Source of the DNA: Octopus vulgaris
Lineage: Eukaryota
DNA: 64,000 nt
Reading direction: 5' to 3'
NCBI GenBank assembly: GCA_951406725.2
Contig: OX597840.1
Span: 18,476,001 to 18,540,000, forward strand
Shown here: positions 8,812 to 42,917 of the stretch, one piece after another
How the letters are laid out: every line of letters begins with the position of its first letter
How positions within the stretch are numbered: position 1 is the stretch's first letter
Made by a program: the position numbers and the translations under genes
Notes under the pieces: model-generated
The model's input: the letters and a program-made list of their open reading frames with translations, nothing else
What the model was told of the DNA's origin: nothing
Databases searched by the model: none

Positions 8812-8855
8812 ATATGTAATAAATATATATCTAATATCTTCTTTTTTTATTCCAG

Positions 8856-8959
8856 AGAAATACACTTCCGAAGAAGAGAGTAAGAATCCCTGTACAAAAC
8901 ACGAAACTTGTGGTCAATGTATTTCATCAAGTGTCAACTGCACGTGGTGTACTCTTAAC
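8856..8959 (+). CDS. ITGB: Integrin beta exon, PSI domain ([34 protein letters not shown])
   Basis: ttccag|...|gtaagt; phase 1 in, 0 out; C-x5-C-xx-C...C-x-W-C PSI signature. Confidence 0.93.
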
Positions 8960-9401
8960 GTAAGTGAAGTTTTCCTTTCCATCAAGCTCTAATTTCAGAG
9001 ATATTTGGCTACTATTTCTAGCATGATGAGCAACCACCATTTTTTTTTTTTTTTGGCCAACACAAATTATGACAATTTTCTTGGGATTCTGTTTTCTATG
9101 CTCCTTATGTTTATTTGACCAAGCATACTGACCATTGGTGTTTGGGATCGTTAACTGAGCCCATGCTGGTCATGGACTGGGTATACTGTGTCCCTGGGGG
9201 TTGTGAGAGGTGGCTAAAGCAGCTGGAATCAGGAGAGGCGGCATTGGTGTTGTCATCATCATCACTATTTAGAGTCCACTTTTCAATGCTTGTTTCGAAG
9301 TGAAGTAATATTTGGCCATGGCTGGACATGTCTCTCCACTGCACTGGGAGTGACACTGCTCTTTAATTGCAAGAAAAGGGGACACACACATTCACACACA
9401 C

Positions 9402-9453
<52 letters not shown>

Positions 9454-9653
9454 CATTCACACACACACACATTCATTCCCACACACACACACACACGTTC
9501 ATTCACTCACACACACACGTTCATTCACACACACACACATTCACACACTTACTCATACACAATTTACACATTCACATGCATACGCATGCACATTTATGCA
9601 CATACTCACACACATACACATGTGCACACACTAACACAAAAATACACACACAG

Positions 9654-9703
<50 letters not shown>

Positions 9704-12700
9704 GTGTGTGCTATAAGCTTCTATCAGTTTCCATCTGTCAGATCCACTCCCAAGCTATTGGTTGGCCCAGATTTTCTGTCACAAACACTTGCCTAAGGCA
9801 GCATTGTGAGGTAGGACTGAACCTTGAATCATGTGGTTGGGAAGAAAACTTCTTACCACACAACCACGCCGGGAATATTGTTATTAAAACACTGCCTTAG
9901 CCATTTGACCTCTGCCAGTATGGAAAAAAAACAGATCTGAAATGATGATGGTGTTGATGATGGTGGTGGTGGTGGTTTATGGATTGAACTGACTAGGGAC
10001 TAGTCATAGGCTAGTTGTTGATTGACAATAGATTGGCTAAATACTGACCATAGATTTGTCATGGAATGAGTATTGTATACCGCTCTGTTCAAAGTCTCCC
10101 TTGACCTCAAGTGGCCTGAACTCTTTACATGAACACCACCCTGTACATAACTCCATGTCCCCCTACATGGCCTAGCTTTTTGCTTTTTGAGCCAAATTAC
10201 TGTAATGTACTGACCACAGACTAGTCATAGAATAACCATGGCTGGTCAAATACTGACCATAAGCAGGTCAAATTTTAGCCATAAGCTGGCCAAATACTGA
10301 TCATAAGCTGACCAAATACTGATCATAAGCTGGTCAAATATTGACAAGCTACCGGACAAGATAGTGAAGATACTGACAACCGCTCGGTTCAAAGTCTCCT
10401 TGACCAGAAATGGCCTGAACTCTTTGCATGAACACCACCCTGTACATAACTCCATGTCCCCCTACATGGCCTTGCTTTTTGCTTTTTGAGCCAAAAAATT
10501 AACTTAACTTAACAAATACTCACTGTAAGCTGGCCAAATGCTGATCATATGTAGGCTAAATATTTACGATCAGTTGACTAAATACTGACCACAAGCTGGA
10601 CAAATACTTACTATAAGCTGGCTAATTACTGACCACAGATTGGCCAAATATTGACCATAGTCTGGCTACCCCAGACGTAACTCCTCTTGCAACTTTGAAC
10701 TGAGCACTAGTTTCATAGTAATGAGAGCAGGAGTGTATATAGACGTAGATGATAGTGAGTATATATAAATCTTAATTATATACTTTATACTTCACTAATT
10801 ATAGCTACTGCCTAATTAGTGCGTACCTTCGTTAACAAACTTCAAAAATTGGTGGTCTGCTACTGTTGTTTCTGTCTACAATGAAATGCATAACAGCAAA
10901 GGAGAGGGAGGGAGCGGCATTAACAAAATTGGTAGAGCATCAGATGGAATATTTTGTGATATTTTGTTGTGGTGCTTTGTGTGAATTCGAACCCTTTTGG
11001 GGGTTTGGAGGAAACTTTTATTTTCATCCTTCCAGAGTGTTATGATGTGAGTGTACATGCTGGGTGTAAAGCAGTATTGGGTTGGGGCAAAATTATTGCA
11101 GCTTTTTTTCAACAAATTTTATTCAACAAAAACAATAACATGTAACAAAAACATCTTTGACCCTTTAGCATTTAAACCGGCCCCTTATCCAGCCCAAATA
11201 TTCTACTTGTTTTATGTCCAAACTGGCCCAATTTGGCCTCTCAAACCTACTCTACAATGTCATTCTAAAGATAAACAATCACACCATTGAAATCCCCAAA
11301 CTATGAGATAAAGTATGATTAATTCAAATCAATGTGAAGGCAGAAGCATGGCATTTGGCAGAGTAACCAGAATACTAAAGGGTTAAATAATGATCTGACC
11401 ATCTGCCAAGCAGTAATTGAAGTGGATGGTGAATATGCTCCAGAATAATCATTTAACCCTTCAGTGTTCAGATTATTCTGTCGATTGTGATGTTTGTTTA
11501 TTTAAAATGGTTTGAATTAATTCTGCATTATCTTGTAGTTTAGAGATTTCAGTCATGTGATTTTTTTAGTTTTAGAATGACATGGTAGGGCTGAGGTGAG
11601 AGGCGAGATCTGGTCAGTTTTAATATAAAACAGGTTAAATATTTTGGCCAAATACGGCCGGTTTGAATGCTAAAGAGTTAAAGATGTTTCTGTTACATGT
11701 TGTTATTGTTTTTGTTGAATAAAATTTGTTGAAAAAAAGCTGCAATAATTATGCACCAGCCCAATATTACCCGAATAAATATTTGGATGTGGTTATCTAA
11801 AATAATCCAAGCACAGAATTATTATGTTTATACAAGATGCACTCTGTACTGCTTGAACGTAGACATGATATTAAACCAACTCACATCGCACTAGCACAGT
11901 AACCAATACAGTCGACCAACACTGTCATCTGCCCTGACAGTTCACACAGTTTTTTATTTATGCCAGAGCAGCCAGCCAAGAACACCATCCAAGCGTGATC
12001 GTTGCCAGAGCAGCCAGCTGGCTTCCGTGCTAGTGGTATGTAAAAGGGCACCATTCGAGCGTGATCGTTACCAACGTCGCCTTACTGGCACCTGTGCCGG
12101 TGATATGTGTAAAAAGATTCAAGCGAGGTCATTGCCAGTACCGCCTGACTGACCCCCATGCTGGTGGCACGTAAAAAGCATCCACTACACTCTCGGAGTG
12201 GTTGGCATTAGGAAGGGCATCCAGCTGTAGAAACTCTGCCAGATCAAGATTGGAGTCTGGTGCAGCCATCTGGTTCACCAGCCCTCAGTCAATCGTCCAA
12301 CCCATGCTAGCATGGAAAGTGGACGTTAAGCGATGATGATGATGATGATGATGATGAAACGCATTAGTCCACTTTCAGTCATGTGGGAATATACAGGGGG
12401 TTAATTTGCTTGTCTCTGATCCTACATACGTCTTTGTGCTTATGTTTGCTCCCCACCTGCCCACCACTTGATAGAGTTGGTTTGTTATGTCTCTGTAACT
12501 TATTAGTTCAGCAAAAAGAGACCAATAGGCATAAAATACAAAAGAAATATGTACTAGGTTTGATTTGTTTGACTAAACCCTTCAAGGCGGTGCCCCAGTA
12601 TGGCCACAGTCCAATGACTGAAACAAGTAAAAGATAAAAACTTTTTGGAAATTAATTTCATCACTATCTGAAACGAACTCCCAGTACCCCATGAAATGGT

Positions 12701-14047
12701 ACTAGTACCCCAGGTTATGCAACACTAATTTCATTGAAGAATTTATCCTATAAATTTCACATGTTTTTCAAAAAAGAAATAAATTCCACTGTCACACATT
12801 CTTACCATTTTAATATTTCTTTTTCCAGTTGAATATAAAATTATGCAACACCCGTGAAGCCCACATTGCAAATGGCTGTGATCAACATATTGTCGATCCA
12901 GTTTCAGAAATTACCATTGCTAAGGTCAGTATTTCACTTGATACCTGGACAGCAGTCTTTTTGAAATCTATTTTAGTCACCTTTTAACATAATTTTAAAT
13001 ACGAATAAGTTGATAATTTAGTTCTATATTTAAGAGATGAGGAATTATTTACATTATTTACATTATTTACATTTGACAGATATTTGTCCTCATCTTGTTT
13101 GTTGTTAACACAACGTTTCGGCTGATATACCCTCCAGGCTTCATCAGGAGTCTTGGGGAAATTTCGAACCTAGGTTCTCATTCCTAAGGTATATTTTTTG
13201 ATGTTGTTGTTATTATATGCCCATGGGTATATGGCATAGTGGTTAAGAGCGCGAGCTACTAATCCCAAGATTCCAAGTTCAATTCCAGGTAGCAACCTGA
13301 ATAATAATAATAATAATAACATCAAAAAATACCTTAGGAATGAGATTCCAGGTTCAAAATTTCCCCAAGACACCTGAAGAAGGCTGGAGTGTATATCAGC
13401 CGAAACGTTGTGTTAACAACAAACAAGATGGGGACAAATATCCATCAAATGTAAATAATGTAAATAAGGTGATTATTTATTTTTAAACGTATAAAAGCCG
13501 ACAGAACAGCAGAGACTGGATAAGATATCCTTATAAAACAGAAAACTTTATCAACAATCAGTCTCATGGCTGGCTGCTGACCAATTTTTCTGCTTTTATA
13601 AGGATCTTTTATCCACTCTCTGCTGTTCTGTCAACATTTATGCATTTGAAAATAAAATTATCATCTTATTTGTATCTCAATACACATTTCAAGGCTTCTT
13701 AAACAAATATTAGTTTGTTTACATTTATTGTAATTTGAAATTAAAAATTTTATACATGTGGCTGTGTGGTGAGTAGCTTGCTTCCCAACCACATGGTTCT
13801 GGGTTCAGTCCCACTGTGTGGCACCTTGGGCAAGTGTCTTCTACTATAGCCTCAGGCTGACCAAAGTCTTGTGAGTGGATTTAGTAGACAGAAACTGAAA
13901 GAAGCCTGTCGTATATATATATATTTATTTTTATATATATATATATATTTATTTTTATATATATATATATATATATTTATTTTTATATATATCTATATAT
14001 ATATATATGTATATATATATATGTATATATATGTATATATATATATG

Positions 14048-14144
<97 letters not shown>

Positions 14145-14146
14145 GT

Positions 14147-14178
<32 letters not shown>

Positions 14179-14513
14179 GTATATATATGTATGTATATAT
14201 GTATGTATGTATATGTATATATATATATATGTATATATATGTGTGTGTGTGTATATGTTTGTCCCCACCAACATCACTTGACAACCGTTGCTGGTGTGTT
14301 TACATCCCTGTCACTTAGCAGTTCGGCATGAGAGACTGATAGAATAAGTGCTAGGCTTACAAAGAATAAGTCCTGGGGTCAGTTTGCTTGACTAAAGGCA
14401 GTGCTCCAGCATGGCCACAGTCATATGACTGAAACAAATAAAAGAATAAAGAAAAAGAAAAAAGAACACATACACATGTGCATGTCTCTCTTTAAAATGC
14501 ACACACACACACG

Positions 14514-14599
<86 letters not shown>

Positions 14600-14612
14600 C
14601 CCACGCACACGC

Positions 14613-14677
<65 letters not shown>

Positions 14678-14909
14678 CACACACACGCACACGCACACGC
14701 ACACGCACACGCACACGCACACGCACACACACACACACACACACAAGTGTGTATGTATGATTAAGAAGTTTAGTTCTCACCCACATGGCTTTCAGATCAA
14801 ATTTACAGTGTGGCATCTGAAGCAAGGTGCCTTCTTTTACAGCCACAGGGGCCTAGCAAGAGCCTTATGAATAGATTTGGCAGCCTAAAATCGAAAGAAG
14901 CCAGTGTGC

Positions 14910-14940
<31 letters not shown>

Positions 14941-16434
14941 TATATATTTGTGTGCGTGCATGTGGATGTGTGTAAATGCAACCAGTACATCATACAAAAT
15001 GTTTGGATTTAGGAAGAGCATCCAGCTGTAGGAACAATGACAAAGCTGACACCAGAGCATGATATGGCCCTGGGGCTCACGGAATTTTGTCAAATTAAAA
15101 GGCGGAGAGCTGGCAGAAACATTAGCACGCCAGACGAAATGCTTAGCGGTATTTCGTCTGCCGCTATGTTCTGAGTTCAAATTCCGCCGAGGTCGACTTT
15201 GCCTTTCATCCTTTCGGGGTCGATAAATTAAGTACCAGTTATGCACTGGGGTCGATATAATTGACTTAATCCATTTGTCTGTCCTTGTTTGTTCTCTCTG
15301 TGTTTAACCCCTTGTGGGTAGTAAAGAAATAGGAATTTTGTCAAATTGCCCAACTCTGCCAGCATGGAAAATGAACTGAGCGATCATAATCCTGTGGGTT
15401 GGTGGGTGCTGGTGCCACATAAAAGCACCCAGTTCAATCTGTAAAGAGACTGGCATTAGGAAGGGCATCCAGCTGTAGAAACCATGCCAAAACGGATATG
15501 GAACCTGGGTAGATCTTCAGCTGTCCAACTCCAGTTAAGCCTTCCAACCCATGCCAGCATGGAAATAGATGTTAATCAATGTTGATGATAGATATAGATA
15601 GATAAGACCTGTCTGTGCTCGAGAAAACCTGCCAAGCTAAGTGAAATCATAGTTATGGCCAATGCCGGTGCCATATAAACGGCATCGATGCTGGTGGCAC
15701 GTAAAAAGCACCTTTCGAGCATTGGGCCTCACAGAAGCAATGACAAGCGATTAAGATCTTTGGCAATCTGCTGTGCTTGAGAAGAAGACCCATCGATACT
15801 GGGGTCACGCAACTGGCAACTGTGCTGGTGGCACATGAAAGCACCCATTACACTCTTGGAGTGCTTGGTGTTAGGGGGGGCATCCAGCCGTAGAAATCAG
15901 ACTGGAGTCTGGTGTAGCCTTCCAGCTTGCCAGCCCTGGTCAAACCATCCAACCCATGCCAGCATGGACAATGGACATTAAGTGATGAGGATGATGTATA
16001 CACACACAACTGTTAAGTTCCTTATATATTACAACATTAATCTTTTTATCAATAGAATCGACCCACAGCAGATGGACAAAATGCGATCCAAATTCAGCCA
16101 CAGAAGATCAAGTTACGAGTACGACCTCGTAAGTAACAATTCTTTTTTTTATTATGAGATATGTACATATTTATGACCGTGTGTGTACCGTTGGTGATTT
16201 TTTTTCCTCTGTCTTCCCTTCTCTGGATCTTTCCTTCTCCTATGTTTCCGACGAAGAGCTCCGCTCAAAACGTTAAACCCTCCTTCTTTCCTTCTTTCCT
16301 GAGCGTCCAATAATACTATATTTGTTCCACGTCCTCGCGTTGTTGTTTTTTTGTGCTTTCTTGTTTGGATTATCTATATATATATATATATATTTACACA
16401 CACACACACACACGTGTGTTTTCGTGCATGTATG

Positions 16435-16484
<50 letters not shown>

Positions 16485-19400
16485 TCTAATTTACTCTTTT
16501 TCTTTGTTTTTGCCCTTCCTTTGCCCCTCTCATTTATGCAATCACTATTTTCTTTCTTCTCTTTCCCTTTCCCCATTCTCGCTCTCCTCCACCCTCTCCT
16601 CTCCCAATTTTTTTATTTCTTTCCCCTCCTCTCCCTCACTCACACTGCACCCCTGTCTTTCCTTCTCTCTTCCACCCATCATATCACCTATACAATCTCT
16701 ATTTCCTGTTCCCACAACTCTTTCACTCTCTCACTCCCCCCCCTCTCTCTATCTCTTTTCCTTCTCCCTCCCTCCCTCATCACCAATACACTTTCAGTGT
16801 TCAATCTCCCCCTTCACACCCTCTCTTAATACTCTCTTTTCTCTCACCACCACCAGATGAAACCGTGGAGATACCATTCCAGTTCTACTTTGCCAAAGAC
16901 AGTCCAGTGGACCTCTACTTCCTCATGGATCTATCCTATACCATGGCGAAATACATCAACCAGCTGGCCACGGTCTCACTTGCACTCGGTAAGTACTTCA
17001 ACCAAGTCACCAGTATGTAGAGGTCAGGAGTCATGTGGGGGCAGCTGGGGGCCCTGGACTAGAATACCCACCACATGGCAAGTTGTCAGGCCTTCAGCCC
17101 CATTTCTGTTTTCCTGATTGACATTACACAGGGTGTCCCAGTATTAACAATCCATTTCAATGAAATCAGGTAAATTATTTAAAGAATTTTATATTTATTT
17201 CTTAATTATGATTCCAAAACAAATAGATTTATAAATTTTACATCCAAACTTTATTGAAAATTTTGTCTTGATCCCTGCAAATTTGAAACCTACCCTTAGC
17301 TTTACAAGACACATTTAGAAGCATTTCAAGGAGTTATCATCATCATCGTTTAACGTCCGCTTTCCATGCTGGCATGGGTTGGACGGTTCAACTGGGGTCT
17401 GGGAAGCCAGAAGGCTGCACCAGGCCCAGTCTGATCTGGCAACGTTTCTACGGCTGGATGCCCTTCCTAACGCCAACCACTCCATGAGTGTAGTGGGTGC
17501 TTTTTACGTGCCACCAGCACGGGGACCAGACGGGGCTGGCAAACGGCCACGATCGGATGGTGCTTTTTATGTGCCACCGGCATGGGGGCCAGGCAAGGTT
17601 GGTAATGGCCAAGGTCGGATGGAGCATTTTACGTGCCACCAGCACGGATGCCAGTCGGGCAGTGCTGGCATCTCCTGCACAAATTTCAAATCTACCCTAA
17701 GCATTCTAAGACACATTTAGAAGCATTTCAGGTGTTATTTCCTACACTGCTAACTGAATGCATTCTTTTAGTTCAGCTAAACTATTGTTCCATCCTGGGG
17801 ATGGAAGCAGAGAAAATGGTTGCAGCCAAATTGAAAAAAAAAAACTGTTTTGAACAAATGTGCAGCATCCAAAAGGAATGAAAATATAACTATGAAATTA
17901 TAAACAAAGTTTATTCTATCAGTCTCGTTTGCCAAACTGCTAAGTTACAGGCATATAAACACACCAACCAACACCAGATGTCAAGTGGCGGCAGGGGACA
18001 ACTACAGACACACACACGCGTGCATGCGCATGTGCACAATGGGCTTCATTCAGTTTCCGTCTATGAAATCCACTCCCAAGGCTTTGATTGGCCCAGTATT
18101 ATTAATTTCCACTCTTATTGCTTCAGAAGATATGCCCACCACAACAGAATTGAGATCCTAAAACCGAGATGCCACTTAAAAAGCATTGGTCTGAATGTTG
18201 GTCCCACATAAGACGCACTGGTGATGGTGCCACATAAGACGCATTGGTGATGGTGCCACATAAGACGCATTGGTGATGGTGCCACATAAGACGCATTGGT
18301 GATGGTGCCACATAAGACGCATTGGTGATGGTGCCACATAAGACGCATTGGTGATGGTGCCACATAAGACGCATTGGTGATGGTGCCACATAAGACGCAT
18401 TGGTGATGGTGCCACATAAGACGCATTGGTGATTGTGCCACATAAGACGCACTAGTGATGGTGCCACATAAGACGCACTAGTGATGGTGCCACATAAGAC
18501 GCATTGGTGATTGTGCCACATAAGACGCATTGGTGATGGTGCCACATAAGACGCACTAGTGATGGTGCCACATAAGAAGCACTGGTGATTGTGCCGCATA
18601 AGATGCACTGGTGATGGTGCCACATAAGACGCATTGGTGATGGTGCCACATATAAAGCAGCCAGTACACTCCAAGTGATTGGCATTGGGAAAGGCATCTA
18701 ACTGTAGGAAACCTAAGCAAAACAATGAGATTTGGTGCAGCCTCTGGCCTTTCCAGTTCCTCTCAAGCCGTCCCACCCATGCCAGCATGGAAAATGGACG
18801 TTAAATGATGATGATGTGAAAGGCAGGTTGTCTGGTGATGGGAAGATCCTGCCTTGCTTGGAAACCAGTGAAGGTTGATGGCAAGGTGCAGGCATCTGCA
18901 GACAGAAAGTCTGCCTCAGTCAATTCTGTCAGAACCATGCAAGAATGGAAAAGTGGATGTTTGAGGATGATACACAAACACATGTGTGTGTGTGTGTGAG
19001 TGGTTTAGTGGTCAGAGTATTTATGGCGGCGAGCTGGCAGAAACGTAGCACGCCGGGCGAAATGCTTAGCGGTATTTCATCTGCCATTACGTTCTGAGTT
19101 CAAATTCCGCCGAGGTCGACTTTGCCTTTCATTCTTTTGGAGTCGATAAATTAAGTACCAGTTACACACTGGGGTCGATATAATCGACTTAATCCGTTTG
19201 TCCTTGTTTGTCCCCTCTATGTTTAGCCTCTTGTGGGTAGTAAAAAAATAGGTATTTCGTCTGCCGTTACGTTCTGAGTTCAAATTCTGCCGAGGTCGAC
19301 ATTGCTTTCATCCTTTCGGAGTCGATAAATTAAGTACCAGTTACGCACTGGGGTCCATATAATCGACTTAATCCATCTGTCTGTCCTTGTTTGTCCTCTC

Positions 19401-22400
19401 TGTGTTTAGCCTCTTGTGGGTAATAAAGAAATAGGTATGTGGGTAGCATTTGTGATTCTTACGGGTGCGTTATGTCCTTCAGCAAAACCCTCTTTTTCTT
19501 GATGGTTCAGTGCACTCAGCTAGCAAAAATGTACCAGTAATTTGAAAGGGCCAGCCTTGTCACATTCTCTGTCATGCTGAAATCTCCATGAAGGACTACA
19601 TTTAGTGCATGTGTATCTGTGGAGTACTCAGCCACTTGCACATTAATTTCACAAGCAGGCTGTTCTGTTGATCGGATCAACCGGAGCCCTCACTGTCACA
19701 ACCAGTGGAATGCTAGTGTGTGTGTTTATAAAAATATATAGATGTATATGGCCTAGTGGTTAGAGCAGCGGACTCGCGGTCAAGGGATCGTGGGTTCGAA
19801 TCTCAGACTGGGCGATGTGTGTGTTTATGAGCGAAACACCTAAGCTCTACATGGCTCCGGCAGAAGGTAATGGCGAACTTCTGTGACTAAAAAATGGTGG
19901 TGCCCCAGCATGGCCACAGCTCATGAGCTGAAACTAGATGAAATGAAAAAATGTATGCATGTGCATATGTATGTATGTGTGCATGTGTATGTATGTATGC
20001 ATGTGTGTGTTTGTGTGTGTAAGTATGCATCTATATATTTATATATGTATTTATATATATTTATATGTATGTCTGTATGTGTGTATGTCATCATTATCAT
20101 CATCATTTAACATCCGTGTTCCAGGCTAGCATGGGTGGGATATGCATATGTATGCATATGAGTGTGTGTGTATGTATATCTTTATATATAAAACTGAAGT
20201 TGTGTGTGTATCTGTCTACTCCGATTTAGATTCCTAACTACTCCCACATTTTGCGGTGCAGTTTAACCAAAAGCGGGTATCTTATAGTCGTGATTCATAT
20301 CGAGCCCTTCTAGGTATTAGCGCGAATCTATGATGAGTTTACAATTTAAAAAAAAAATTACCATCATTTTTCCGCATTTTAATGCATTTTTGCTCGGTTT
20401 GTATAGAGGAAATAACTCTCTAAAAATGCTTATATAGTTATTTCCCTTACAAACCTGAGCAACGCTGGGCGATACTGCTAGTGTATTTATATAAATAACC
20501 TGCTGTGCTTACCTTGGATCGTAGGGTGACCTGCTCTGCTTGAGGAGACCTATTGAGTCAAGTACATCACCATCAAAATAAATATCAAATGGAAATTGTA
20601 GTTGTGATACCTGTGCCGGTGGCACGTAAAAAGCACCATCCGAACGTGGCTGATGCCAGCGCCGCCTTGACTGGATTCTGTGCCAGTGGCACATAAAAAA
20701 CACCATCTGATCGTGGCCGCTGCCAGCCTCCCCTAGCACCTGTACCGGTGGCATGTAAAAAGCACCCACTACACTCACGGAGTGGTTGGCGTTAGGAAGG
20801 GCATCAAGCTGTAGAAACACTGCCAGATCAGATTGGAGCCTGGTGCAGCCTCCTGGCTTCTCAGACCCCAGTCGAACTGTCCAACCTATGCTAGCACGGA
20901 AAACAGACGTTAAACAATGATTGTGATATATATACACACACATATATATATATGTCTACATATATATGCGTGTGTGGCGGGGTATATGTATTTATATCTG
21001 TGTGTGTGTTGTGTGTTTCTTTACACAGACTAATTCTGCATATTTTTTACCAATCCCTTGTTTACTTCCACAGTGAATGACATTCAAAAACTGACGGGCA
21101 AGCTGAATGTTGGCATCGGATCCTTCATAGACAAAGTGCTCCTACCTTACACAGACACAAGTAAAGATGCGTAAGTGAACCCTTTCTCTGCATTTCCCCA
21201 ATTCTTCTCTTTTAAAACCAAACTATTTTGCTTTCCTCATCTTTTATCTCCTCCTCTCCTTCCTCCTCATCACTATCATTAATTACTTTGACATGGTTCC
21301 TATGGCTGGATGCCCTTGCTAACACCAACCACATTACAGCGTGTGTACTGGGTGCTTTTCCCATGCCACCAGCATCAGTGAGGTCATCACACAGTATGCT
21401 AAACAACAAACCCCGAGGAAGGTAACTTTATGCTCAGAAATGAGGGCCTCATCTTCATCAAATTTAGTGTCCGTTTTCCATGCTGACATAGGTTGGACAA
21501 CTTAATAGGAACTGACAAGACCAGGGGCTGCACCAGGTTCCATTGTCTGTTTTGGCATGGTTCCTATGGCTGGATGCCCTTGCTAACACCAAATATTTTA
21601 CAAAGTGTGTACTGGATGCTTTTTCCATGCCACCAGCATTAGTAAAATCATCATACAGTATGCTAGACAAGGAACTTTGAGGCGGTGGGAACTTTATGCT
21701 TGGAGATGAGGGACATCATTATCATCTTATGTCCATCTTCCATGCTGACATGGGTTGGACAGTTTGACAGGAGTCGGTAAAGCTGTGGCCACACCAAGTG
21801 CCCATTGTCTGTTTTCGCTTGGATTCTGTGACTGGATGCCCTTTTTGTGTCGCAGGCAGGGGTGCCCATTCATGTGTCACCAGCATCGATACCTTTTACA
21901 TGCCATACACTCTTTTACTCTTTTACTCGTTTCAGTAATTTGACTGTGGCCATGCTGGAGCACCGCCTTTAGTCGAGCAAATCGACCCCGGGACTTATTC
22001 TTTTTGTAAGCCCAGTACTTATTCTATCGGTCTCTTTTGCCGAACCGCTAAGTGACGGGGACGTAAATACACCAGCATCGGTTGTCAAGCAATGCTAGAA
22101 GGACAAACACAGACACACAAACATATACATACACATACATATATATATACATATATATGACAGGCTTCTTTCAGTTTCCGTCTACCAAATCCACTCACAA
22201 CGCAGTGGGACTGAACCCGGAACCATATGGTTGGTTAGCAAGCTACTTACCACACAGCCACTCCTGCACCTATATATATATATATATAAATATATGAGTT
22301 AATTTTGAGTGTTGGGCCTCATGGAGGCAAAGAGGCCAAGATCCTTTCAAGTTTTGGGCTTCACGGAGGCAATAACCAAGACCTTTGGCATTATGTCGAG

Positions 22401-22640
22401 CTTGAGAAGAAGACCCATCAAGTTGAGCAAAATCACAGTTGTGGCAGATACCAGTGTCACAGAAATTGGCACACGTGCCGGTGGCATGTAGAAACTCTCA
22501 TTACATTCTCGGAGTGGTTGGCATTAGGAAGAGCATCCTGCTATAGAAAACCATGCCAAATCAGACTGGATCTTGGCGCAGCCTTCCAAAATGCCAGCCA
22601 TGCCAGCATGGACAACAGACGTTAAATGATGATGATCACA

Positions 22641-22680
<40 letters not shown>

Positions 22681-25600
22681 TACTTGCTACATTAGTGCTT
22701 GCTTGGCCGAATCGATGCTTGTTGAATTTTTACTTGCTGAGTAAGGGTGTAATGATTTAAGGCCCCTGTGGTACGGGGGTCCATATAAGATTTTGGTGGT
22801 TCACTTAAGCGATATAGAAAACTGAATACCAGCAGTATTATTTTCAGCGTTCATAAAAAATTTTCCAAAAAGGCAGTGCTCCAGCAAGGCCACAGTCAAA
22901 TGACTGAAACAAGTAAAAGAATAAAATAATGTATTTATCACAAGAAACAAGCAAGATTTCTGTTTAGCATTTTATGTAGTTCAACTTTCACAAATTCATG
23001 TGTGAAAGAGCAAAATAGGAATTTTAGCCCGGGTTTACGAGTTTCATTTTTCAGCGCACTTTTGTATAGTGAGATTTTCAAACACAAAATCCAAATTTTG
23101 AACAAAGTGCCAAGGTTTCTACCTCCCTAACAAATGCTTCTGCGTGTTACTGAATTTTTTATTGAGAGAGAAAACGCTTATTCTAAGTAAATAACTCTCG
23201 ATTTGTTTTTTAAAAAAAAATCTACAAGTCCGTCTACAAGTGTTTGTGAGATGGTGGGTGCGAGTCTGGTGGGAGTAAAAGTGATTCAAAAAACGATTAT
23301 AATAATAATATGGATTTTTTCGGTTTGAACGGCAGATTTTTCTAGCGGTGTCATATGAAATTGTCACCCATAATTATGACCCTAGTATCGATCTATTGCA
23401 TTTCAATCTGTTTTAGGGTTAGGGTTGGGGGGAAGGGTATCTTTTTTTCTTCACAAATATAAATAAACCCAATCTGTTTCTTAAACGAGGGACATATTCA
23501 TACGGCACAGAATGTTTTTTTTTACCTCAATAGACGTCAGTGATTGGTTGAAATTGCAGAAAAAAAACAACAAATATCTTATAAACTTTAGAATTTTCTC
23601 AATAAAGCCAAGAGAAAAAGATGTTTTATAAACACATTCTACCAATATACGAAGTTTAAAATTTTTTAGTTACCTAGAAATTATGTTAAAAACTGCCGTT
23701 CAAACCGAAAAGATCCAATATTTTTTATTATAAAGGATCTTGACATTCATTTTATTTTACATAAAATATCTTTTACATTCTACTGTTATTTTATTGCCAT
23801 TTATTTACGAGTATTATAAGTTTTATAAGTAAAATATTTTTCTGGGAACGAATTTAGATTTATAACATTGCCTCTATGAGAAATTATTGCTCCACTTTAT
23901 GAGCAGTCACCGGGAACAGATTATCTCGTAAGGTATGGCGGGGTCCACCAGGATAAAATAGTAATCAAAGGGGTCCATTGGTACAAAAAATAGTTGAGAT
24001 CTACGAGCTTAATGGAATATGGTTTTTTCTAAAGTCAGCAAAATCTTGAAGCTTTGAATATTCAAGGGAAGTAACTCCTGTATACATTTGCAACAGTTTT
24101 CAAAGCTAAAAATTGTGTGGAAGCTACTGGCCTTGCAAGGAAGTCTTTTTATAATAAAATAATAATGAAATTATTGTATACAGTGCTCAGGTTCAGCACA
24201 ACTTGTCAAAAGGGCATATAAAGCATATGCAGTAATGTAAAAATGTCTGGGAAGCGAACAGTGTATGAGTCAGATACATGCTTGCGTGTGTATGGAGGGG
24301 AGAAAATCAGGTGTAGTGTAGGCAAATCTCAGGAAGCATGGAAGTTTTGAAGGATGCAGTGCTCCGACAACTAACAACTGATGCCGGCAGTTTGTTCCAT
24401 GCTTCATCAACTCTTAGCATGAAAAAATGTTTCTGAAAGTCATGGGAGCTGTGCTGTTTTCTGACTTTGTAAACAAAGTATTATAAGTTTTCTGACTTTG
24501 TAAACAAAGTATTATAACACGGGTGTTAGACAGGTGGAGTTTGAAAAGGTGCTCAGAGTTATTGTTAGTAAGATGGTTAATAATTTTATGGGTGTCTACC
24601 AAGTCAGCTGCCATACGTCGGAGTTTCAATGTGTCCATGCCCAGGGAAGTAAGGCGTTCCGAATATGGCAAATGCCTGAAACAATAAACTTCTGATGACA
24701 TTAAGCCAACAACATTACAATCAGCAACACCTTAAGCCTGTTTTGGGACCCAGGAGATTGAATAACAAAGACCCTTTAACCTTGTCTATGACGTGTGTGT
24801 GTGTGTGTGTGTGTAGTGTGTACATGCATCTGTGTGTGTCTTTTATTTGTTTGGGATTAGTTTGCAGCCATACTGGGGCAACACCTTGAAGAATTTTTGT
24901 GGAATGTATCAGCCCCAGGTACTTCATTTTTTAAAGCCTGCTAGTTATTCTATCGATCTCTTTTTGCCGAACAGCTAAGTTATGGAAGACGTAAACGTAT
25001 AAACACTGGTTGTCAAGCGGTTGTGGGGGACACACAGGCGTGATCTCAGGAATTTTTCAAAGGGAAGGTCACAAGGTCAGGAGAGATTACAATTCTAGGA
25101 GAAAAGGGCATAATAACATTATTTAGAAAGGCGATCTTCTTTTCTTGAGAGGGGCACGTGCCCCTCAGCTCCGCCCCTGACACACGGATACAAAGATGTA
25201 ATTAAAATGTCCTTAGTTCATTGTAGTCTTCCATGAAACTGTATCGGGCGAATGAGTTGTCAATAAATACAGGGACGGAGTGGGTTGTTATCAGTTTGTG
25301 CTGGTCGCCATTGAGAGATCAGATGTTCTAGAACCCATCCCCCCACTTTTTTTTTCTTTTCTATTCTAGGTACAAGGCCTGAAATTTTTGGGCAGGTGGG
25401 GGGAGTCAATTAGATTGATCCCAGTATGCAACAGGTATTTCATTTATTGACCTGGCGAGCTGGCAGAAACATTAGCATGCCGGGCGAAATGTGTAGCCGT
25501 ATTTCGTCTGCCACTACGTTCTGGGTTCAAATTTCGCCGAGGTCGAATTTGCCTTTCATCCTTTCGGGGTCGATAAATTAAGTTACGTTTGTCTGTCTTT

Positions 25601-27431
25601 GTTTGTCCCCTCTGTGTTTAACCCCTTGTGGGTAGTAAAGAAATAGGTATTTAATTTATCGACACCCCCACCACCACCACCAAAAGGATGACAGACTTTG
25701 GTGAAATTTGAACTCAGAACGTAAATACTGCTAAGCATTTTGCCCGGTGTGCTAACATTTCTGCCAGCTTGCTACCTTAAACCCTGTTCTGCCGATTGAC
25801 TCAGCAAAACAGGGATAATAGTGGCCCTTTGGAGAAATTGAGTCTCCTTGGATAGGGTAGCTGTTATAGTGAGTATCACTGACCATTCTCCATGGAAACA
25901 CCCCCAGTTGTTTTGTGATGTCTGGCCCATCACCCACCCCCCCACATCGTCTGCTGTTTTATCCTCTTCCCCTTTTTCTTTTCTTCCTTTTCCTTCCTTC
26001 CTGCTCCTTTGTATTTCAATATTAATTTTAAAATTCTATTACTGTGTCGCAACAAACCACATCTGACCCCTGCAAGCATAGTAAGCTTCACATTGTGATG
26101 ATGATGATGACAATGATGATGATGATAATGATGTTGATGCTGTTGCTTAACCAAACTTTTTTTTTTTTCTCCAGTATCAAAAATCCTTGCTTCTCTCAAA
26201 AATTAAAATGTGAAAGTCCGTATAACTTCAAACAAGTTGTGAAGTTGACAAGCCAGTTTCAAGCTTTCAGTGTAAGTAATGCTGTCTTTTCTTATTTTAG
26301 TATGGTATTTATTTGGCTGATGGAAACTGAAAGAAACCCATCATGTGTGTGTGTGTGTATACATGGTGGTTTCTCTCATCGAAGACGATGAATGAGGGTT
26401 CAGTAAATAACCTTCAGCAATTCCTAAGCCCTGTGACACCGCATGTGTACCTTCAATCCAGCAGATGTCTTGCACACTTTCTCGCAAATGGTACACCTGC
26501 ATGTATTCGTTGGCTCAAAATGTCTTCTTGAGTGGACAGCTGACCCAGCTTTGCTTCGTGCTTTGAACCCACAGTGACACACAGTCATTGTTTGGTGGAT
26601 TTTGCTGATGATGCGTTGCTTTCAAATTTGCACGAAGGTCGTCCCTATGACAAAGACGGTTACTTTCAAATTCTCTAGTCTTTAGAAAACACATTTTCCT
26701 CCATTTTATCTTTAAGTCTTATATGTATTACATTGTTACCTCTGCCTTAGTGAAGGCAGAGGTATTGTTTTCGGTCATGTTTGTTTGTTTGTCCAAGGAC
26801 AAGGTATCTTGAGAACCGCTTGGTGGATTCGGATGAAGCTTTCAGAGATGTTTGGCCTCATGACTGGTGCAAACTGATTAGATTTTGGGATTGATCCAGT
26901 ACCGGACAAATATTTTGGATTATTTTTCCTGCTTTTTTACTTAATTTTTGAGAGCAGACAGGTTCGTTTTTAGTATTCTCGTTTATGTTAGTTAGTTAGT
27001 TAATTTGGCTCAAAAGCAAATAGCAAGGCCATGTAGGGGGACATGGAGTTAAGTACAGGGTGGTGTTCATGTAAAGAGTTCAGGCCACTTGAGGTCCAGG
27101 GAGGCTTTGAACAAAGCGGTCGTTGGCATCTTCACCATCTCGTCTGGCAGCTTGTTCCACGGATCTGCAACCCGGACGGAGAAAGCTCCTCTCCTTCGAT
27201 TGAGATGAAATCGTCGCAGGTAGAGCAGTCAAATTTATTTCAGATTTTCTCATTTTAAAAATCATCTGCTAACCATTGAGAAGACGTTGGTGTTGCCTTG
27301 GCAGAGGTTTGCACTCTCTGAGTGCTCTTCATATGATATATTTTTATCATGATACAAATAAAATAAAATTAAATAAGTGTCCACTATATTTCTTCTCCAT
27401 TTTCTTATATTAACATAACAAAAATAAATAA

Positions 27432-27486
<55 letters not shown>

Positions 27487-30255
27487 TTGGGAAGCCATCC
27501 AACTAAGGGGTAGTACCTATCCAATATACTGCTGGTAGTGTGCCCAATTATTAAGACCCAAGTGCTGGTTATTGCGTGGCAATTTTGCAATCGAGTGTCA
27601 TATATGGGTAAGGGTAAAATGTGGTTTGCCCTTAATTTATACAGCAAAAAGAAATTGAAGGGGATACAAAAATGACATGGATCAGCCCGTAGACATTCTA
27701 TTATGTCTATTTATTCCAAAACAAAAGGGAATATTATAAGAATAGATAAACATGCAAAGACTGTCTTCTACACAAATATATACTCGTAATAATAGTAATA
27801 CTTAAAAGAGTAAAAGATTAAAAGATCAGTTCCTTACGGCCATTTCTGCCATGAGGCCACGATATCCTGCATGCTAGGGATGGGTAGATAGAGTTCAGAT
27901 GTTGAGTGTGCCTCTAGGCTTCATCAGAGGGTCTAAATGGTTAGGAGAGCCGATACATACAAGAGTCAGTTACTAATAGGTACTGTATATTTTTATAAAG
28001 ATAGAATGACTACACCTACCTTTCCACCACTGAAAAAAATAACATGGATAACTTGGAAGGCATCACTTGATGTCTTTGACTTATTTCTCTTTCCTATATC
28101 TAATCCATTTTACTAAATTTTACTTCTCTTACACTCAAAGTCTTGCTCCTATTCTTCTTCTGCCCTCTTCAATAAGAAAACTATACAGTACCTATTAGTA
28201 ACTGACTCTTGTATGTATCAGTTCTCCTAACTATTTAGACCCTCTGAAGCAGCCTAGGGCACATTCAACATCCAAATTCTATCTACACATCCCTACAGAA
28301 CGCTGAAGGGATGGAGCTAGCATGGAGGATATCATAGCCTCTTGGTAGAAATGGTCGTAAGGAACTGATTTTCTAACGTTTTACTCTTTTATGTACTACT
28401 AGTATATATTTATGTAGCACACAGTCTTTGCATGTGTATCTATTCTTATAATACTCCCTTTTGTTTTGGAATAAATAGACATAGTAGAATGTCTACCAGC
28501 TGATGTATGTTATTTTTGTATCCCTCTATTTTCTTTTTGCCACACACACACACACACATAAATGAAAGAAGGTTTCAAAATGCAATTTTAAAGTTTATTC
28601 ACTTCAATGGTTTCACTTTTTAAGAAAAAGATTGTCAAAAGTAAAATGTAAAAGTTTTGTAAAAGCTTTGTTGTGTTAAGTACTGATTACCACAAAAGCA
28701 TTAGAATACAGCATACATTCTTTGATAATAATAAGAAAATGTTAAAATAGTTTACAAGAAAGTATTTAAGAAAATATTCAACAAAAAGTATAAGGAGTTC
28801 AATAAAAATCATGTTTGTTTGGTAATATATTTATACACAGAAGGAGATATATTTAAGAGTTTAAATATTTATGTCTTAAATTTATAAGGTTCATGAACTT
28901 ATTTATTTACTTATTTATACTTATATACTTGTAATTAATTTTGACAAACATAGTGATATATAAGGAGTAGTAATATTTATACATGTGGGGAAAGTAGACC
29001 TGTCGATTGGGAGTGCGTAAAGATAATGAGTTTTTAAATGAGACTTTGTGTCTTAACAATACTATACGTACCCTCATGAAACACGTGTAGTCAATAATAT
29101 GGAAAATTTTTGGATTATGAATAGAAATAGTAAATATATTATTTAATATTTTATGGCTTGGTTGAGTTAATACCGTTTGGAGTTGATGAAGTTGTGGGTG
29201 GCTCTATCTCTAACATTATTTTGATATATATACTTTTTTTAGTCTTTTACTTGTTTCAGTCATTTGACTACGGCCATGCTGGAGCACCGCCTTTAGTCGA
29301 GCAAATCGACCCCAGGACTTATTCTTTGTAAGCCTAGTACTTATTCTATCGGTCCAACATCACTTGACAACCAATGCTGGTGTCTTTACGTCCCCGTCAC
29401 TTAGTGGTTCAGCAAAAGAGACCAATAGAATAAGTACTAGGCTTACAAAGAATAAGTCCTGGGATTGATTTGCTCGACTAAAGGTGGTGCTCCAGCATGA
29501 CCACCGTCACATGACTGAAACAAGTAAAGAGAGTAAAAGAGTATATCAATGTAGTGATTGTAGTAGTTTTCTGCTGAAGGTTCTATTTCATCTTGACTTG
29601 GATATTACCCGGCAGTGTAGCAATAGGTCACGACTAGTTGTCAATAACAGCAACAAAATCAAGAACAACAAAAGCAACAACAACATCAACAAGCTGGAAT
29701 TAAAAATTAATCAAAAATCTTTTGCTTCCTTGCAGGACAAAGTCAGCCAGCTGCAGAATTTGTCTTCTGCCAATCTGGACAACCCTGAAGCAGGATTAGA
29801 AGCCATGATGCAGACTATTGTCTGTGGAGTAAGTACCTAGATTTTTTTATATTCATATTTTGTGTGCTAAGAAGCTTGCTTCCCAACCACATGGCTCCAG
29901 GTTCAGTCCCACTGCATGGCACCTTGGGCAAGTGTCTTCTACTATAGCCTTCAGCTGACCAAAGCCTCGTGAGTGGATTTGGTAGACGGAAACTAAAAGA
30001 AGCCCATCATATATATATGCCTATACACATGCTGAATATGCTCCTTTGTCACTTTCATGATAGCTTTGAAAAAATAACTGTTAAAATCGAACTGCACTCT
30101 TCAAAACTTGCACTAAGAATAAGACTAAGGCAAAATTACTACCTGCTTTTATGGCAAGTTCATACAGGTAGTTTATCCCATTCCCCTCCGACTTTTGATT
30201 TATGCAATTGAAAAAACCGCATTATTTGTGGGATGGCCCAATACATACATACCAC

Positions 30256-30319
<64 letters not shown>

Positions 30320-33300
30320 AAAAATATATTTATGATATATGTATAAAAATCAATAGAGTATATAAACAATAAATAGTAAATAGACCTGATGAGTGACTAT
30401 ATTTTTAAATAGAATTAATTTTAATTGATTTTATTATCGATTTGAAAATATAACCACAAAATGTGCATAGTCTATCTACTATTTATTGTTTATGTACATT
30501 ATTGATTTTTAGAATAAGGTTTTTATAGTATATTTAACTTTTTCTATATGGTGTGAATAACATCCTTTGCTATTGAATTGTTTAATAGAGGTTTTTCTCT
30601 AAATTATATACATATATTATATATTGGGAAATTTGATTTAGAATTGCTAAAGTTTGGAATTATATTCCCTACTATTATTATTATTATATATATATATATA
30701 TATATATATTTGATTAATACATATATATATTAATACATACATATATATTTATCTATTACAGGACAAAATAGGATGGCGAAACAACTCCCGTAAACTGATT
30801 ATTTATTGTTCTGATGCTTCATTTCATTATGCTGGTGATGGTAAGGTGAGTACAAGCCCATAGCTTTTTCTTATTAACTCTTTTGTTACCATATTTTTGT
30901 TGACCCATAATACTTTCGTTTCAATTAATTTTTGAAATATTGAAGAATTTTGAAATATAACTTTCTCATTATTAAGTTGGTGTCTGACAAAAATTAACTT
31001 AGAGTTCTTAAGGAAGATTATAATTTAGATCACTTCAAAACAGTAAGTTTATGTCCTGGAACTGGGGGGGTCAGTCTCAGGTGGGTTGGTATCAAAAGGA
31101 TGGAACTGACTCTTATTTTATTGGCACACAGATATACAAGGGGGTACTGAAAAGTCCCTGGCTTTGGGTACAAGAAAACACAGGAGGATCGGTTAATCAT
31201 CATTTTATTCAACATATTCCCCCTCTCTGACCCACACACTTATTGCAGTGGTCCTTCAATGTTTCTAAGTCGAGTAAAAGAACTCAGATGGTTGGACCTC
31301 CAACCAGTCCTTTTGTGATACCTTTAAAGGCAGGAACTTTTCTGTATCCCTTCATACACACTAAGTTAGTCAATTTACATAGAACAAAACAAAAACTGGG
31401 GGACAAGATTTAATATTGAATCGGAATTTGGATAAAGAAGGATAACCCTATAAGATGTACCCAGTGTAAGCTATGGACACATAAAAGGTGCAGCAATGTC
31501 AAAGGAAGGCTAACTGGGAAGATAGTTTTTGTATGTGGCAGATGCTCGGGAGCATTAACCTCTGAAAATCTGCAGAAAACAACTTCCATCACTTTCCAGG
31601 GGAAAAAACTAGAAGTAGTTGATAGCTTCCGTTATCTAGGTGACCAAGTCAGTAGTAGGGGTGGGTGTACTGAAAGTGTAACGGCTAGAGTAAGAATAGC
31701 CCGGGCAAAGTTTAGGGAGCTCTTATCCCTGCTGGTGACTAAAGGCCTCTCGCTCAGAGTAAAAGGCAGACTGTATGATGCATGTGTACGAACAGCCATG
31801 CTACATGGCAGTGAAACATGGGCCGTGACTGCTGAGGACATGCGTAAGCTCGCAAGAAATGAAGCCAGTATGCTCCGATGGATGTGTAATGTCAGTGTGC
31901 ATGCTCGACAGAGTGTAAGTACCTTGAGAGAAATGTTGTACCTAAGAAGCATCAGTTGTGGTGTGCAAGAGAGACGATTGCGCTGGTATGGTCATGTGGC
32001 GAGAATGGATGAAGATAGGTGTGTGAAAAAGTGCCAATCCCTAGCAGTGGAGGGAACCTGTGGAAGAAGTAGACCCAGGAAAACTTGGGACAAGGTTGTG
32101 AAGCACGACCTTCGAACCTTAGGTCTCACTGAGGAAATGACCAGCGACCAAGACCTTTGGAAATATGCTGTGCGTGAAAAGACCAGGCAGGACAAGTGAG
32201 TCCAGCCCACTTATGCATGCCTTTCCTCCCTTGGACACACAAAGACCTGTTGAGGCAAGTGAAGTCGATATCGAACCTCATCCGACGACAGGCACCTATG
32301 CCAACCACCCTTTGCTTGCAAAGACCTGTTGGGGCAAGTGAAATCGGAATCAAAATTGAACCAATCCTATGACTGGCACCCGGCAGATGCCAGGACCCCT
32401 GGACTGGAGATACGTAAAAAGCACTATCCGAATCGTGGCCAATGCCAGTGCCGCCTCGACTGGCTTCCGTGTCGGTGACACGTAAAAAGCACCATCCGAA
32501 TCGTGGCCGAAGCCAGTGCCGCCTCGACTGGCTTCTATGCAGGTGGCGCGTAAAATGCACCAATCCGACCGTGGCTGATGCCAGCCTCGCCTGGCACCAG
32601 TGCAGGTGGCACATAAAAAGCACCCACTACACTCACGTAGGGGTTGGCGTTAGGAAGGGCATCCAGCTGTAGAAACAATGCCAGATAAGACCGGAGCCTT
32701 GTGCAGCCTTCTGGCTTCCCAGATCCCCGGTTGAACTGTCCAACCCATGCTAGCATGGAGAACGGACGTTAAACGATGATGATGATGATGATGAAGGATG
32801 TAGATGGAGTTCTAAGCATTGGTTAACTTGCACTTCATCGGTTACGACGATGAGGGTTCCAGTTGATCCGATCCACAGAACAGCCTGCTCGTGAAATTAA
32901 TGTTCAAATGGCTGAGCACTCCACAGACACATGTACCCTTAATGTTTTTCTAAGGGAGATTCTGTATGACACAGAGTGTGACAAGGCTGACCCCTTTGAA
33001 ATAAAGGCACAACTCATTTTTACCAGCTGAGTGGACTGGAGCAACGAGAAATGAAGTATCTTGCTCAAGGACACAATGCATAGCTGGGAATTGAACTCAC
33101 AACATAATGATCAAGAGCTCAGTGCCCTAACCACTAAGCCATGCACCTTCACTTCAATATTGGTTAACTCAGTGGTTTTCAACTGGGTCCCATAGAAGAT
33201 TTTTTGTAAGAATTTAAGTGCAATAAATTAGTTTTACTTTTATAATGCAAAAAATCTTTTAATAGTTTTTTTAATTACAATTCATAATAATATTCAATTA

Positions 33301-34124
33301 TAAAAATATAGGTGCAGGTATGGCAGTGTGATAAGAAGCCTGCTTCCCAACCACATGGTTCCGGGTTCAGTCACACTGTGTGGCACTCTGGGCAAGTGTC
33401 TTCTACTATAGGCTTGGGCTGACCAAAGCCTTGTGAGTGGATTTGGTAGATGGAAACTGAAAGAAGCCTGTTGTGTGCATAATAATAATAGTATGGAATA
33501 TAATTCCAAAACTTACAGGGAAAAATTCAATTTAACAATTTTAAGTCAAATTTCACAATATATAATATATGTGTATAATTTAGAGAAAAACGTCTATTAA
33601 ACAATTCAATAATGAAAGATGTTATACACCATATAGAAAACATATACTATAAAAAAAAAACCTTTTTTATAGTATATGTTTTAATAGTGGTGTTTCTCAA
33701 AATTATATATATATATTGATAGAAATGGCAAGACAACAAAAGAATGAAAGAGACCTCGATATTATGTAAATAGAGGAATTTATCTGTAAAATAATATGTG
33801 ACAATTATTCTGTAGCCATGATAAAACTCCGAGTTTCGACCCCGACATCCAAAACTCGGAGTTCTATCATGGCTACCGAATAAGTGTCACATATTATATT
33901 TACAGATATATATATATATATAAATGTGACCTTGTGTGTACCGTTGGCGATTTATTTCCTCTGTCTTCCCTTCTCTGGATCTTTCCTTCTCCTATGTTTC
34001 CGATGAAGAGCTCGGCTCGAAACGTTAAACCCTCCTTCTTTCCTTCTTTCCTGAGTGTCCAATAATACTATATTTGTTCCATGTCCTCGCGTTGTTGTGT
34101 TTTTTTGTGCTTTCTTGTTTGGAT

Positions 34125-34201
<77 letters not shown>

Positions 34202-36446: not shown

Positions 36447-36533
<87 letters not shown>

Positions 36534-42500: not shown

Positions 42501-42884
42501 CTCTTCACTCTCCTTATCCTAAATACTTCACTCTGTCTTATTGCTCACAATCAAATCTATAAATCTAATTAACCTGTCTACTTTAATTACTGCAGGAGAC
42601 AAAAAGTCCACTCTGTAGTTCTGCTGGCAATTTGACCTGCGGTCAGTGTTCTTGTGAGCCAAACCGAAGTGGTCAGAACTGTTCTTGCTCCATTCAAGAC
42701 TTTGAAAATGATCTCATTAACAGATGTCGTCCGTAAGTATGGAATATCACTCACAGCCTCTCTCTCTTTCTCTGTCTGTCTCTTAATCTATCTGCCTAGC
42801 TACCTGTCTCTATTTGTCTGCCTGTTTGTATCTCTCTGTCTATTTCTACCTGTCTGTCTATCTATCTCTATCTGTCTGTCTAGC

Positions 42885-42917
<33 letters not shown>

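Follow-up and report, generated by a model that had tools for sequence, protein, structure and literature searches.

In the head of typical integrins, no side chains other than those of the aspartates D8 and D9 contact the ADMIDAS ion, a Ca2+ that ties these two residues and the S5 carbonyl to the beta6-alpha7 loop and keeps the head closed (PMC6889490, in the part available, whose position names D1-S3-S5-D8-D9 are followed here). In alphaV-beta6, exchange of DD for NN raised affinity 6-fold and reduced the Mn2+ response from 12- to 3-fold, and replacement of the DS motif raised affinity 13-fold, whereas Ala at positions 8/9 lowered affinity in both alphaV-beta6 and alphaV-beta8; the same text proposes that residue 8 may assume the role of the ion towards the beta4-alpha5 Asp (PMC6889490). 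ADMIDAS mutants of alpha5-beta1, alpha2-beta1, alphaV-beta3 and alphaIIb-beta3 are described as losing binding, a loss accompanied by an Ala252-type residue (PMC3792891, in part), and according to unpublished work cited in PMC1538996, DD-to-SN deprived alpha5-beta1 of almost all activity. The function of the ADMIDAS is a matter of dispute, because single substitutions increase affinity in some human integrins and destroy it in others.

Natural chains lacking the site are already known as a kind. The beta8 chain of alphaV-beta8 (PDB 6OM1/6OM2; PMC6889490) has no D8/D9, bears Lys rather than (D/N)S at its beta6-alpha7 loop tip, has neither L/V/I at +5 nor the beta5-alpha6 Thr, and keeps the MIDAS and SyMBS. 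It is the one natural ADMIDAS-less case with a structure, yet its leg and tail also differ. Beta8 is further marked by ligand binding that brings no hybrid swing-out and by an RGDLxxL/pro-TGF-beta ligand. A sequence-only reading of the locus described below had cited beta8 as the known vertebrate case, which is too narrow, as zebrafish beta1-3 (DD to SN) has also been published; this cyprinid chain is a duplicated beta in which both ADMIDAS Asp are replaced while the MIDAS and SyMBS, 56 cysteines, and a conserved TM segment and tail are retained (PMC1538996, in the sections available). Also published is a coral beta2 that has EDL instead of DDL. Oyster betas have been grouped with insect beta-nu by neighbour joining, and the accessible portion of that family paper does not discuss metal sites (PMC7390872). 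No description of a molluscan ADMIDAS loss was found in the literature searched; subscription papers and supplements fell outside it, and alignment figures there could show the change. Nor did the same literature yield a description of a mollusc-wide clade in which a beta8-like head is paired with a full leg and a putative talin-type tail. Here we report one such chain from Octopus vulgaris.

Gene structure, transcripts and predicted fold

The window, a 64,000-nucleotide stretch of O. vulgaris DNA, holds 19 coding exons of an integrin beta gene (Table 1), the number that the sequence-only reading had proposed to splice, and they match residues 28-711 of the 789-aa annotated O. vulgaris protein P0122 letter for letter. 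Exon chaining, Pfam, AF2 and Foldseek assign the encoded domains as PSI, hybrid, beta-I, I-EGF1-4 and beta-tail. Downstream of the window follow the TM and tail exons, at ~86966 and ~95114 when its coordinates are extended (~23 and ~31 kb beyond its end). For the signal-peptide exon(s), no 7-residue match turned up in the window itself, within 40 kb upstream of it or within 60 kb downstream.

Table 1. Positions of the integrin beta features in the window
Feature	Position	Strand	Evidence
Integrin beta gene, 19 coding exons in window	8852..52845	+	Exact exon chaining to P0122
PSI-domain exons	8852-8959, 12829-12924	+	Exon chaining
Hybrid-domain exon, spliced to MIDAS exon	16054..16128	+	Joint 16128->16857 in 4/4 runs
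Beta-MIDAS exon: beta1 strand, beta1-alpha1 loop, alpha1 helix	16857..16988	+	AG/GT ends, phase 1-1
D1-x-S3-x-T5-x-x-K8-Y9 loop; codon starts (P0122 numbering) D144 = 16928, S146 = 16934, T148 = 16940, K151 = 16949, Y152 = 16952	16928..16954	+	Codon check; alignment to beta1
Exon with SFIDK (SyMBS Asp183) and start of specificity-determining loop	21073..21171	+	
Exon with NLDNPE (SyMBS N241, D243, P245; MIDAS E246)	29736..29828	+	
Exon with CSDA: D277 of beta4-alpha5 loop, Ala278, extra Cys275	30762..30845	+	
Exon with beta5-alpha6 loop (Ala336, 37048) and beta6-alpha7 loop (K362-D-Y-T-I-A367, 37126-37143)	36979..37167	+	
I-EGF exons	42596-42733, 44106-44264, 46528-46638, 48292-48384	+	Exon chaining, Pfam
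Beta-tail domain exons	51236-51376, 52744-52845	+	Exon chaining; PF07965; Cys alignment with frog beta1

The gene is expressed as a spliced transcript. The GT..AG joint between the hybrid-domain and MIDAS exons was present in contigs of all four runs, which come from four studies, with 0 other letters in the exon, and the three listed beta-I joints around the SDA and beta6-alpha7 exons were recovered in 3/4, 3/4 and 4/4 runs. In a 2613-base contig of run X1 the exon offsets are, by arithmetic, consistent with an unbroken 789-codon frame. No listed run is on record as RNA, and the status of the contigs as transcripts rests on these GT..AG exon joints. DD, whose appearance through A-to-I recoding had been proposed as a check, was absent from the four contigs. 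Such recoding was ruled out, since A-to-G changes cannot turn TAC into an Asp codon and can turn AAA at most into Glu, Arg or Gly codons; the four contigs carried 0 variant letters in the MIDAS exon, although contigs drop rare variants and low-level editing may go unseen. A pseudogene was excluded by canonical splice ends, zero stops in the 19 matched exons and the spliced contigs. Neither chance nor sequencing error accounts for the loop, because proteins of O. sinensis and O. bimaculoides also carry DLSYTMAKY, and the Argonauta counterpart reads DLSYTMADY.

Identity as an integrin beta is given by Pfam PF00362 (E 2.8e-86), I-EGF and PF08725, with a weak beta-tail match (PF07965, E 3.6e-5, under its curated cut-off). 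The beta-tail nevertheless aligns with frog beta1 in its cysteines, as do 56/57 Cys of P0001, giving the canonical 56-Cys pattern; the full leg proposed from the exons alone, beta-tail and cysteines included, is thus borne out. The cytoplasmic tail carries DRRE, W-x-x-x-x-NPIY and ASTT-x-x-NPVW, its distal motif being NPVW as against the usual NxxY/F. NPxY and S/T-rich tail motifs serve talin and kindlin binding, and typical integrin betas bind these adaptors. The AF2 model has a pLDDT of 87, and every Foldseek match among those listed is an integrin beta. It lies nearest to closed headpieces (TM 0.90-0.92 by target vs ~0.5 for open ones), a weak guide to the real state, and does not discriminate structurally between the octopus chain and its canonical paralog, the two models being alike in alpha1. 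A fused alpha1/alpha1' helix in the model was considered as an open-like sign and rejected, as the model of the canonical paralog has it too. Matches to alpha domains occur in the genome on C27 and C10.

Metal sites of the octopus beta-I head

The loop in the MIDAS exon reads DLSYTMAKY, and its HMMER alignment to DLSYSMKDD of human beta1 is gap-free, so that K151 and Y152 occupy the two ADMIDAS Asp positions and the octopus chain becomes D1-S3-T5-K8-Y9. Misalignment hiding other acids was discounted: alpha1 contains none between T148 and L161, and the sole acid nearby is D363. The loss of the ADMIDAS by exchange of DD for KY, as first read from the exon, therefore holds, as does the reported retention of the SyMBS and MIDAS residues, FIDK, NLDNPE and SDA all being found. 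The MIDAS keeps D144, S146, T148, E246 and D277, and Thr148, which takes the place of Ser at position 5, should be able to bind Mg2+ from its hydroxyl; the SyMBS keeps D183, N241, D243 and P245. Ala278, following D277, is the MIDAS-associated residue of the beta1/beta3 type. The remodelling described for the beta6-alpha7 loop was also found: it reads LDSKDYT, with K-D-Y-T replacing (D/N)S-x-N and Ala367 at +5 replacing L/V/I, and the beta5-alpha6 loop has Ala336 where Thr is usual.

At the sequence level, all four beta8 hallmarks named in the available text of PMC6889490 have a counterpart in the octopus chain. Searched against PDB, the exon with the beta6-alpha7 loop scores best with human beta8 (26 bits, LDSK to IESK), followed by beta6 (22) and beta1/beta3 (21); this lead is only 4-5 bits, and for the MIDAS exon beta8 ranks last. 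The two chains differ in that beta8 has N/N where the octopus has K/Y, and in the octopus Thr at position 5. They also differ below the head, where gecko beta8 lacks the second half of the beta-tail region and the octopus chain has a full beta-tail with 56 Cys, and in the tail, which in beta8 is divergent, lacks NPxY and is of a band-4.1-binding type, as far as the sources available describe it, and has NPIY and ASTT-x-x-NPVW in the octopus. With cyprinid beta1-3 the octopus chain shares all the features listed above for that chain, from duplication to the conserved TM segment and tail. The fish chain has, however, a fish-specific origin from beta1, and the three such proteins in our tree retain S5 and the Thr of beta5-alpha6, together with the loop Ser and an Ile at +5, their heads being far less remodelled. 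The canonical mollusc beta-PS/beta1-like chains (P0144 of the same genome; Haliotis, Dreissena) share the domain layout, fold and tail type, but keep DD, S5, Thr and DSSN, are ~40% identical and form a separate clade.

Distribution and origin of the loss

The O. vulgaris genome has at least 5 beta loci, and 4 of the 5 found are without the DD pair. The exception is the canonical beta-PS locus (DLSNSMADD, C1:87.76 Mb, P0144); besides the studied gene, the loci without DD read DISKTMEKY (C1), DCSVTMKGH (C8) and DLSASMKRS (C18). In a 49-row tree the C18 paralog fell among canonical lophotrochozoan betas, outside the clade of the studied gene, and the C8 paralog was unplaced.

A 26-row tree was built with the trait columns removed under a site-heterogeneous model. 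The studied gene belongs to a cephalopod clade with support 100/100 (Octopus, Argonauta and cuttlefish clusters), which is sister to gastropod and bivalve betas (98/99 in 26 rows; SH-aLRT 94 in 49 rows), with Haliotis, Bulinus, Sinanodonta, Pinctada and Argopecten as members. The mollusc clade also appeared in FastTree (0.94; 168 rows, trait columns kept); the long branches of these paralogs are a remaining risk to it. Of the 20 mollusc-group proteins, all but that of Argonauta, with its Asp at 8, are free of acids at 8/9 (19/20), and T5 occurs in 18/20; the divergent bivalve and gastropod betas (Haliotis, Bulinus, Pinctada, Crassostrea, Argopecten, Sinanodonta) share the loss in 9/9 and T5 in 7/9. 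Every cephalopod-clade protein (11/11) keeps D1, S3, T5, N, D, P, E and D277, with Y, F or H at position 9 and Ala at +5, whereas position 8 (K, D, R, P, V, Q) and loop +1 (D, Q, E, T or N) vary.

The proposal that the loss arose independently of beta8 is supported by the AU test on 26 rows, which rejected union with vertebrate beta8 (p-AU 0.031), and beta8 groups with deuterostome betas; since orthology is rejected, the likeness to beta8 is convergent. A single origin of all ADMIDAS-less betas was rejected in the same test (p-AU 4e-44), and union of the mollusc clade with two beetle proteins was not (p-AU 0.215). These p values are a guide only, because the groups were defined with a first tree already in view and the tree contains several long branches. 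Divergent insect betas (beetle, wasp and moth, beta-PS-like or pat-3-like) share the absence of D8/D9, often with KY or xH/xY, often T5, and a remodelled loop; they differ in lying among arthropod betas in the best trees. The simplest reading of the trees is one ADMIDAS loss before the cephalopod, gastropod and bivalve lineages split, followed by duplications in cephalopods.

For a census of divergent betas we took the best 150 of 3346 representatives at 50% identity, of which 129 have a full beta-I domain: 68 have DD, 21 have one acid or Glu, and 40 are acid-less, among them the O. sinensis orthologue of the studied chain and one octopus paralog. With these 40 of 129 acid-less, 4/5 octopus loci without DD, and the loss shared with gastropods and bivalves, the gene is not the rare, singular case it had been taken for. 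Nor is either KY or DxSxT peculiar to it, for KY is the most frequent replacement pair in the census (7/40 acid-less) and DxSxT tracks the loss, T5 occurring in 21/40 acid-less as against 6/68 DD proteins; Y, H or F stands at position 9 in 25/40. When conservation was compared between the 68 DD and 40 acid-less proteins over 84 conserved beta-I columns (same 150 of 3346), the six largest drops after D8/D9 were at the beta5-alpha6 Thr (0.67), the Met before D1 (0.60), the loop S (0.57), the loop D (0.52), S5 (0.49) and the loop N (0.48), against a median of 0.04 and a range of -0.02 to 0.08 for MIDAS and SyMBS columns; these figures ignore kinship. Kinship was taken into account with 10 phylogenetically independent pairs (146 of 168 rows, the 22 one-acid rows being dropped), where co-loss ran in the expected direction and was not significant, median p being 0.06 at best (loop DS 0.06, aromatic 9 0.06, T5 0.25, Thr 0.375, +5 0.5).

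Proposed ligand binding and alternative explanations

The loss of D8/D9 removes every side chain that could hold an ADMIDAS ion, and by analogy with beta8 and with beta6 structures and mutants (PMC6889490, in part) the site would be without one. As the octopus chain lacks both DD and DS, the replacement of each of which raised alphaV-beta6 affinity, we infer Mg2+-dependent binding with little Ca2+ control, a freer alpha1 helix and a tail still linked to actin, much like beta8 in the head; on balance we consider this somewhat probable. The altered cation regulation or ligand binding supposed in the sequence-only reading is thus a putative property of the chain. The MIDAS Mg2+ would bind an acidic residue of the ligand, free of the brake that Ca2+ exerts in typical integrins. 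The beta6-alpha7 loop would be disengaged from the alpha1 helix, leaving Thr148 and alpha1 freer to move towards the MIDAS ion, and the conserved aromatic at position 9 would occupy the vacated ion pocket. Weak Ca2+ inhibition, weak Mn2+ activation, higher resting affinity and looser coupling to hybrid swing-out are predicted, and force would still pass to actin via talin and kindlin, unlike in beta8.

The direction of the affinity effect is contested, as mutants point both ways, and the Ala252-type residue that the octopus chain possesses (Ala278) is of the sort tied to binding loss in PMC3792891, which counts against high affinity. Further points against the main reading are the variation at position 8 in the cephalopod clade, with Asp there in Argonauta, the lack of significance in the independent pairs, the likeness in alpha1 of the AF2 models of the chain and its canonical paralog, and the small lead of beta8 as match of one exon. 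A low-affinity or dampening beta is therefore a real, if rather unlikely, rival: with no ADMIDAS ion to stabilise the open state, such a chain would give weak, transient adhesion or would compete for alpha chains, talin and kindlin. It draws on the Ala mutants of beta6 and beta8 and on the beta1/beta3 ADMIDAS mutants, which share with the octopus SDA an Ala after the beta4-alpha5 Asp, and a dominant-negative role has been proposed for zebrafish beta1-3 (PMC1538996, in part). Those point mutants, however, keep the D/N-S loop, which in the octopus is also remodelled, a change of the kind that gave the 13-fold gain in beta6; the invariance of MIDAS and SyMBS in 11/11 proteins of the cephalopod clade fits selection for ligand binding; and 4/5 loci of the ADMIDAS-less type would seem too many for decoys.

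Two further explanations appear weaker, because position 8 varies while the other new states are conserved. That side chains replace the ion, Lys151 forming a salt bridge to Asp363 (a closed lock) or to Asp277 (a stabilised open state) with typical but Ca2+-independent allostery, is improbable, although Octopus has K / D where D8 / S(+1) is customary, residue 8 could stand in for the ion as PMC6889490 suggests in the text available, and K or R is at position 8 in 15/40 acid-less and 0/68 DD proteins of the census (zero by definition; best 150 of 3346); neither residue of the pair is conserved in the cephalopod clade, and Argonauta has D at both. Equally doubtful is relaxed constraint, by which a duplicate dropped a regulatory site it did not need and the supporting residues drifted, binding and activation being otherwise ordinary. 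The at least 16 state changes at the ADMIDAS on the 146-row tree indicate a site easily lost, and drift on long branches would also yield co-loss of supporting residues; set against this are the conservation of T5 (18/20 in the mollusc clade) and of the aromatic 9 and Ala +5 (11/11 in the cephalopod clade), and the several-fold affinity shifts of human mutants at these positions (PMC6889490, in part).

The single octopus gene is unsurprising in itself, and the useful part lies in the clade and the recurring pattern: the octopus chain is one member of an old, repeated pattern, not a lone oddity. More tentatively, Mg2+-dependent, weakly Ca2+-controlled binding may belong to a recurrent second head design in animals (DxSxT, an aromatic in the empty ADMIDAS pocket, a disengaged beta6-alpha7 loop), possibly one in which a full leg coupled to talin carries a head that, as in beta8, has high affinity independent of Ca2+ and shows no hybrid swing-out. 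The mollusc lineage of this design would predate the cephalopod/snail/clam split and form most octopus betas, and it may be an ancient protostome lineage shared with divergent insect betas. The census suggests that the three-ion model of human integrins fails for about one third of divergent betas (40/129; best 150 of 3346 representatives) and likewise for 4/5 of the octopus beta loci found. Because the octopus chain joins a beta8-like head to a typical leg and an apparently typical tail, it should allow the features of the head to be studied apart from the activation pathway, and if the design is real it would offer a natural experiment in which control of the head by Ca2+ is uncoupled from activation through talin and force.

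Gene layout, gene models and cytoplasmic tail

The last beta-tail exon of the ADMIDAS-less integrin beta gene (ends at 52845) is separated from the transmembrane exon (~86966) by a gap of ~34 kb (loci L041 and L043-L045), which far exceeds every other intron of the gene. No signal-peptide exon was found in a search extending to 40 kb upstream. The tail exon at ~95114, 3' of the window, carries NPVW as its distal motif, and NPxW replaces NPxY/F in most of the cephalopod-clade tails compared. A single extra A at window position 37074 in the beta6-alpha7 exon, present in one contig of run X15 and absent from the other three runs, is probably a homopolymer error, and the Octopus bimaculoides model P0002 (386 aa), which skips the SDA exon and ends after the beta6-alpha7 exon, is probably a faulty gene model.

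Repeats and possible retroelement remnants

The dispersed intronic repeats (Table) are SINE-like in appearance and were matched by hundreds to thousands of contigs. The two short frames look like retroelement remnants; among them are a weak C2H2 finger (Pfam, E 0.0075) and another stretch, without a Pfam match, which we take to be LINE reverse-transcriptase-like.

Table. Features of the window and further ADMIDAS-less beta genes of Octopus vulgaris (genes: loci L002, L004, L005, L024-L040)
Feature	Location	Strand
Dispersed repeats, highly transcribed	window 16174-16351, 29900-30200, 31500-33800, 35000-35400	
Short frame	window 26427-26621	-
Short frame	window 49353-49475	+
ADMIDAS-less beta gene	C1:143.78-143.79 Mb	
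ADMIDAS-less beta gene	C8:115.93-115.95 Mb	
ADMIDAS-less beta gene	C18:41.80-41.86 Mb	

Metal-site surroundings and related genes

An additional cysteine, Cys275 (exon 30762-30845), lies two residues ahead of the MIDAS-linked Asp277; it occurs in 7 of the 11 cephalopod-clade proteins and is possibly unpaired. The Argonauta protein P0003 has Asp both at beta-MIDAS position 8 and at loop +1, placing two acids near the former ADMIDAS, a pair that could possibly form a cation site made anew.

The Octopus vulgaris genome contains three more ADMIDAS-less beta genes. The C18 protein also lacks the beta4-alpha5 Asp, with IAGSS in place of xSDA, and reads SNDIPE, a motif common to its Argonauta orthologue P0161; its MIDAS may therefore be more altered than that of the gene under study.
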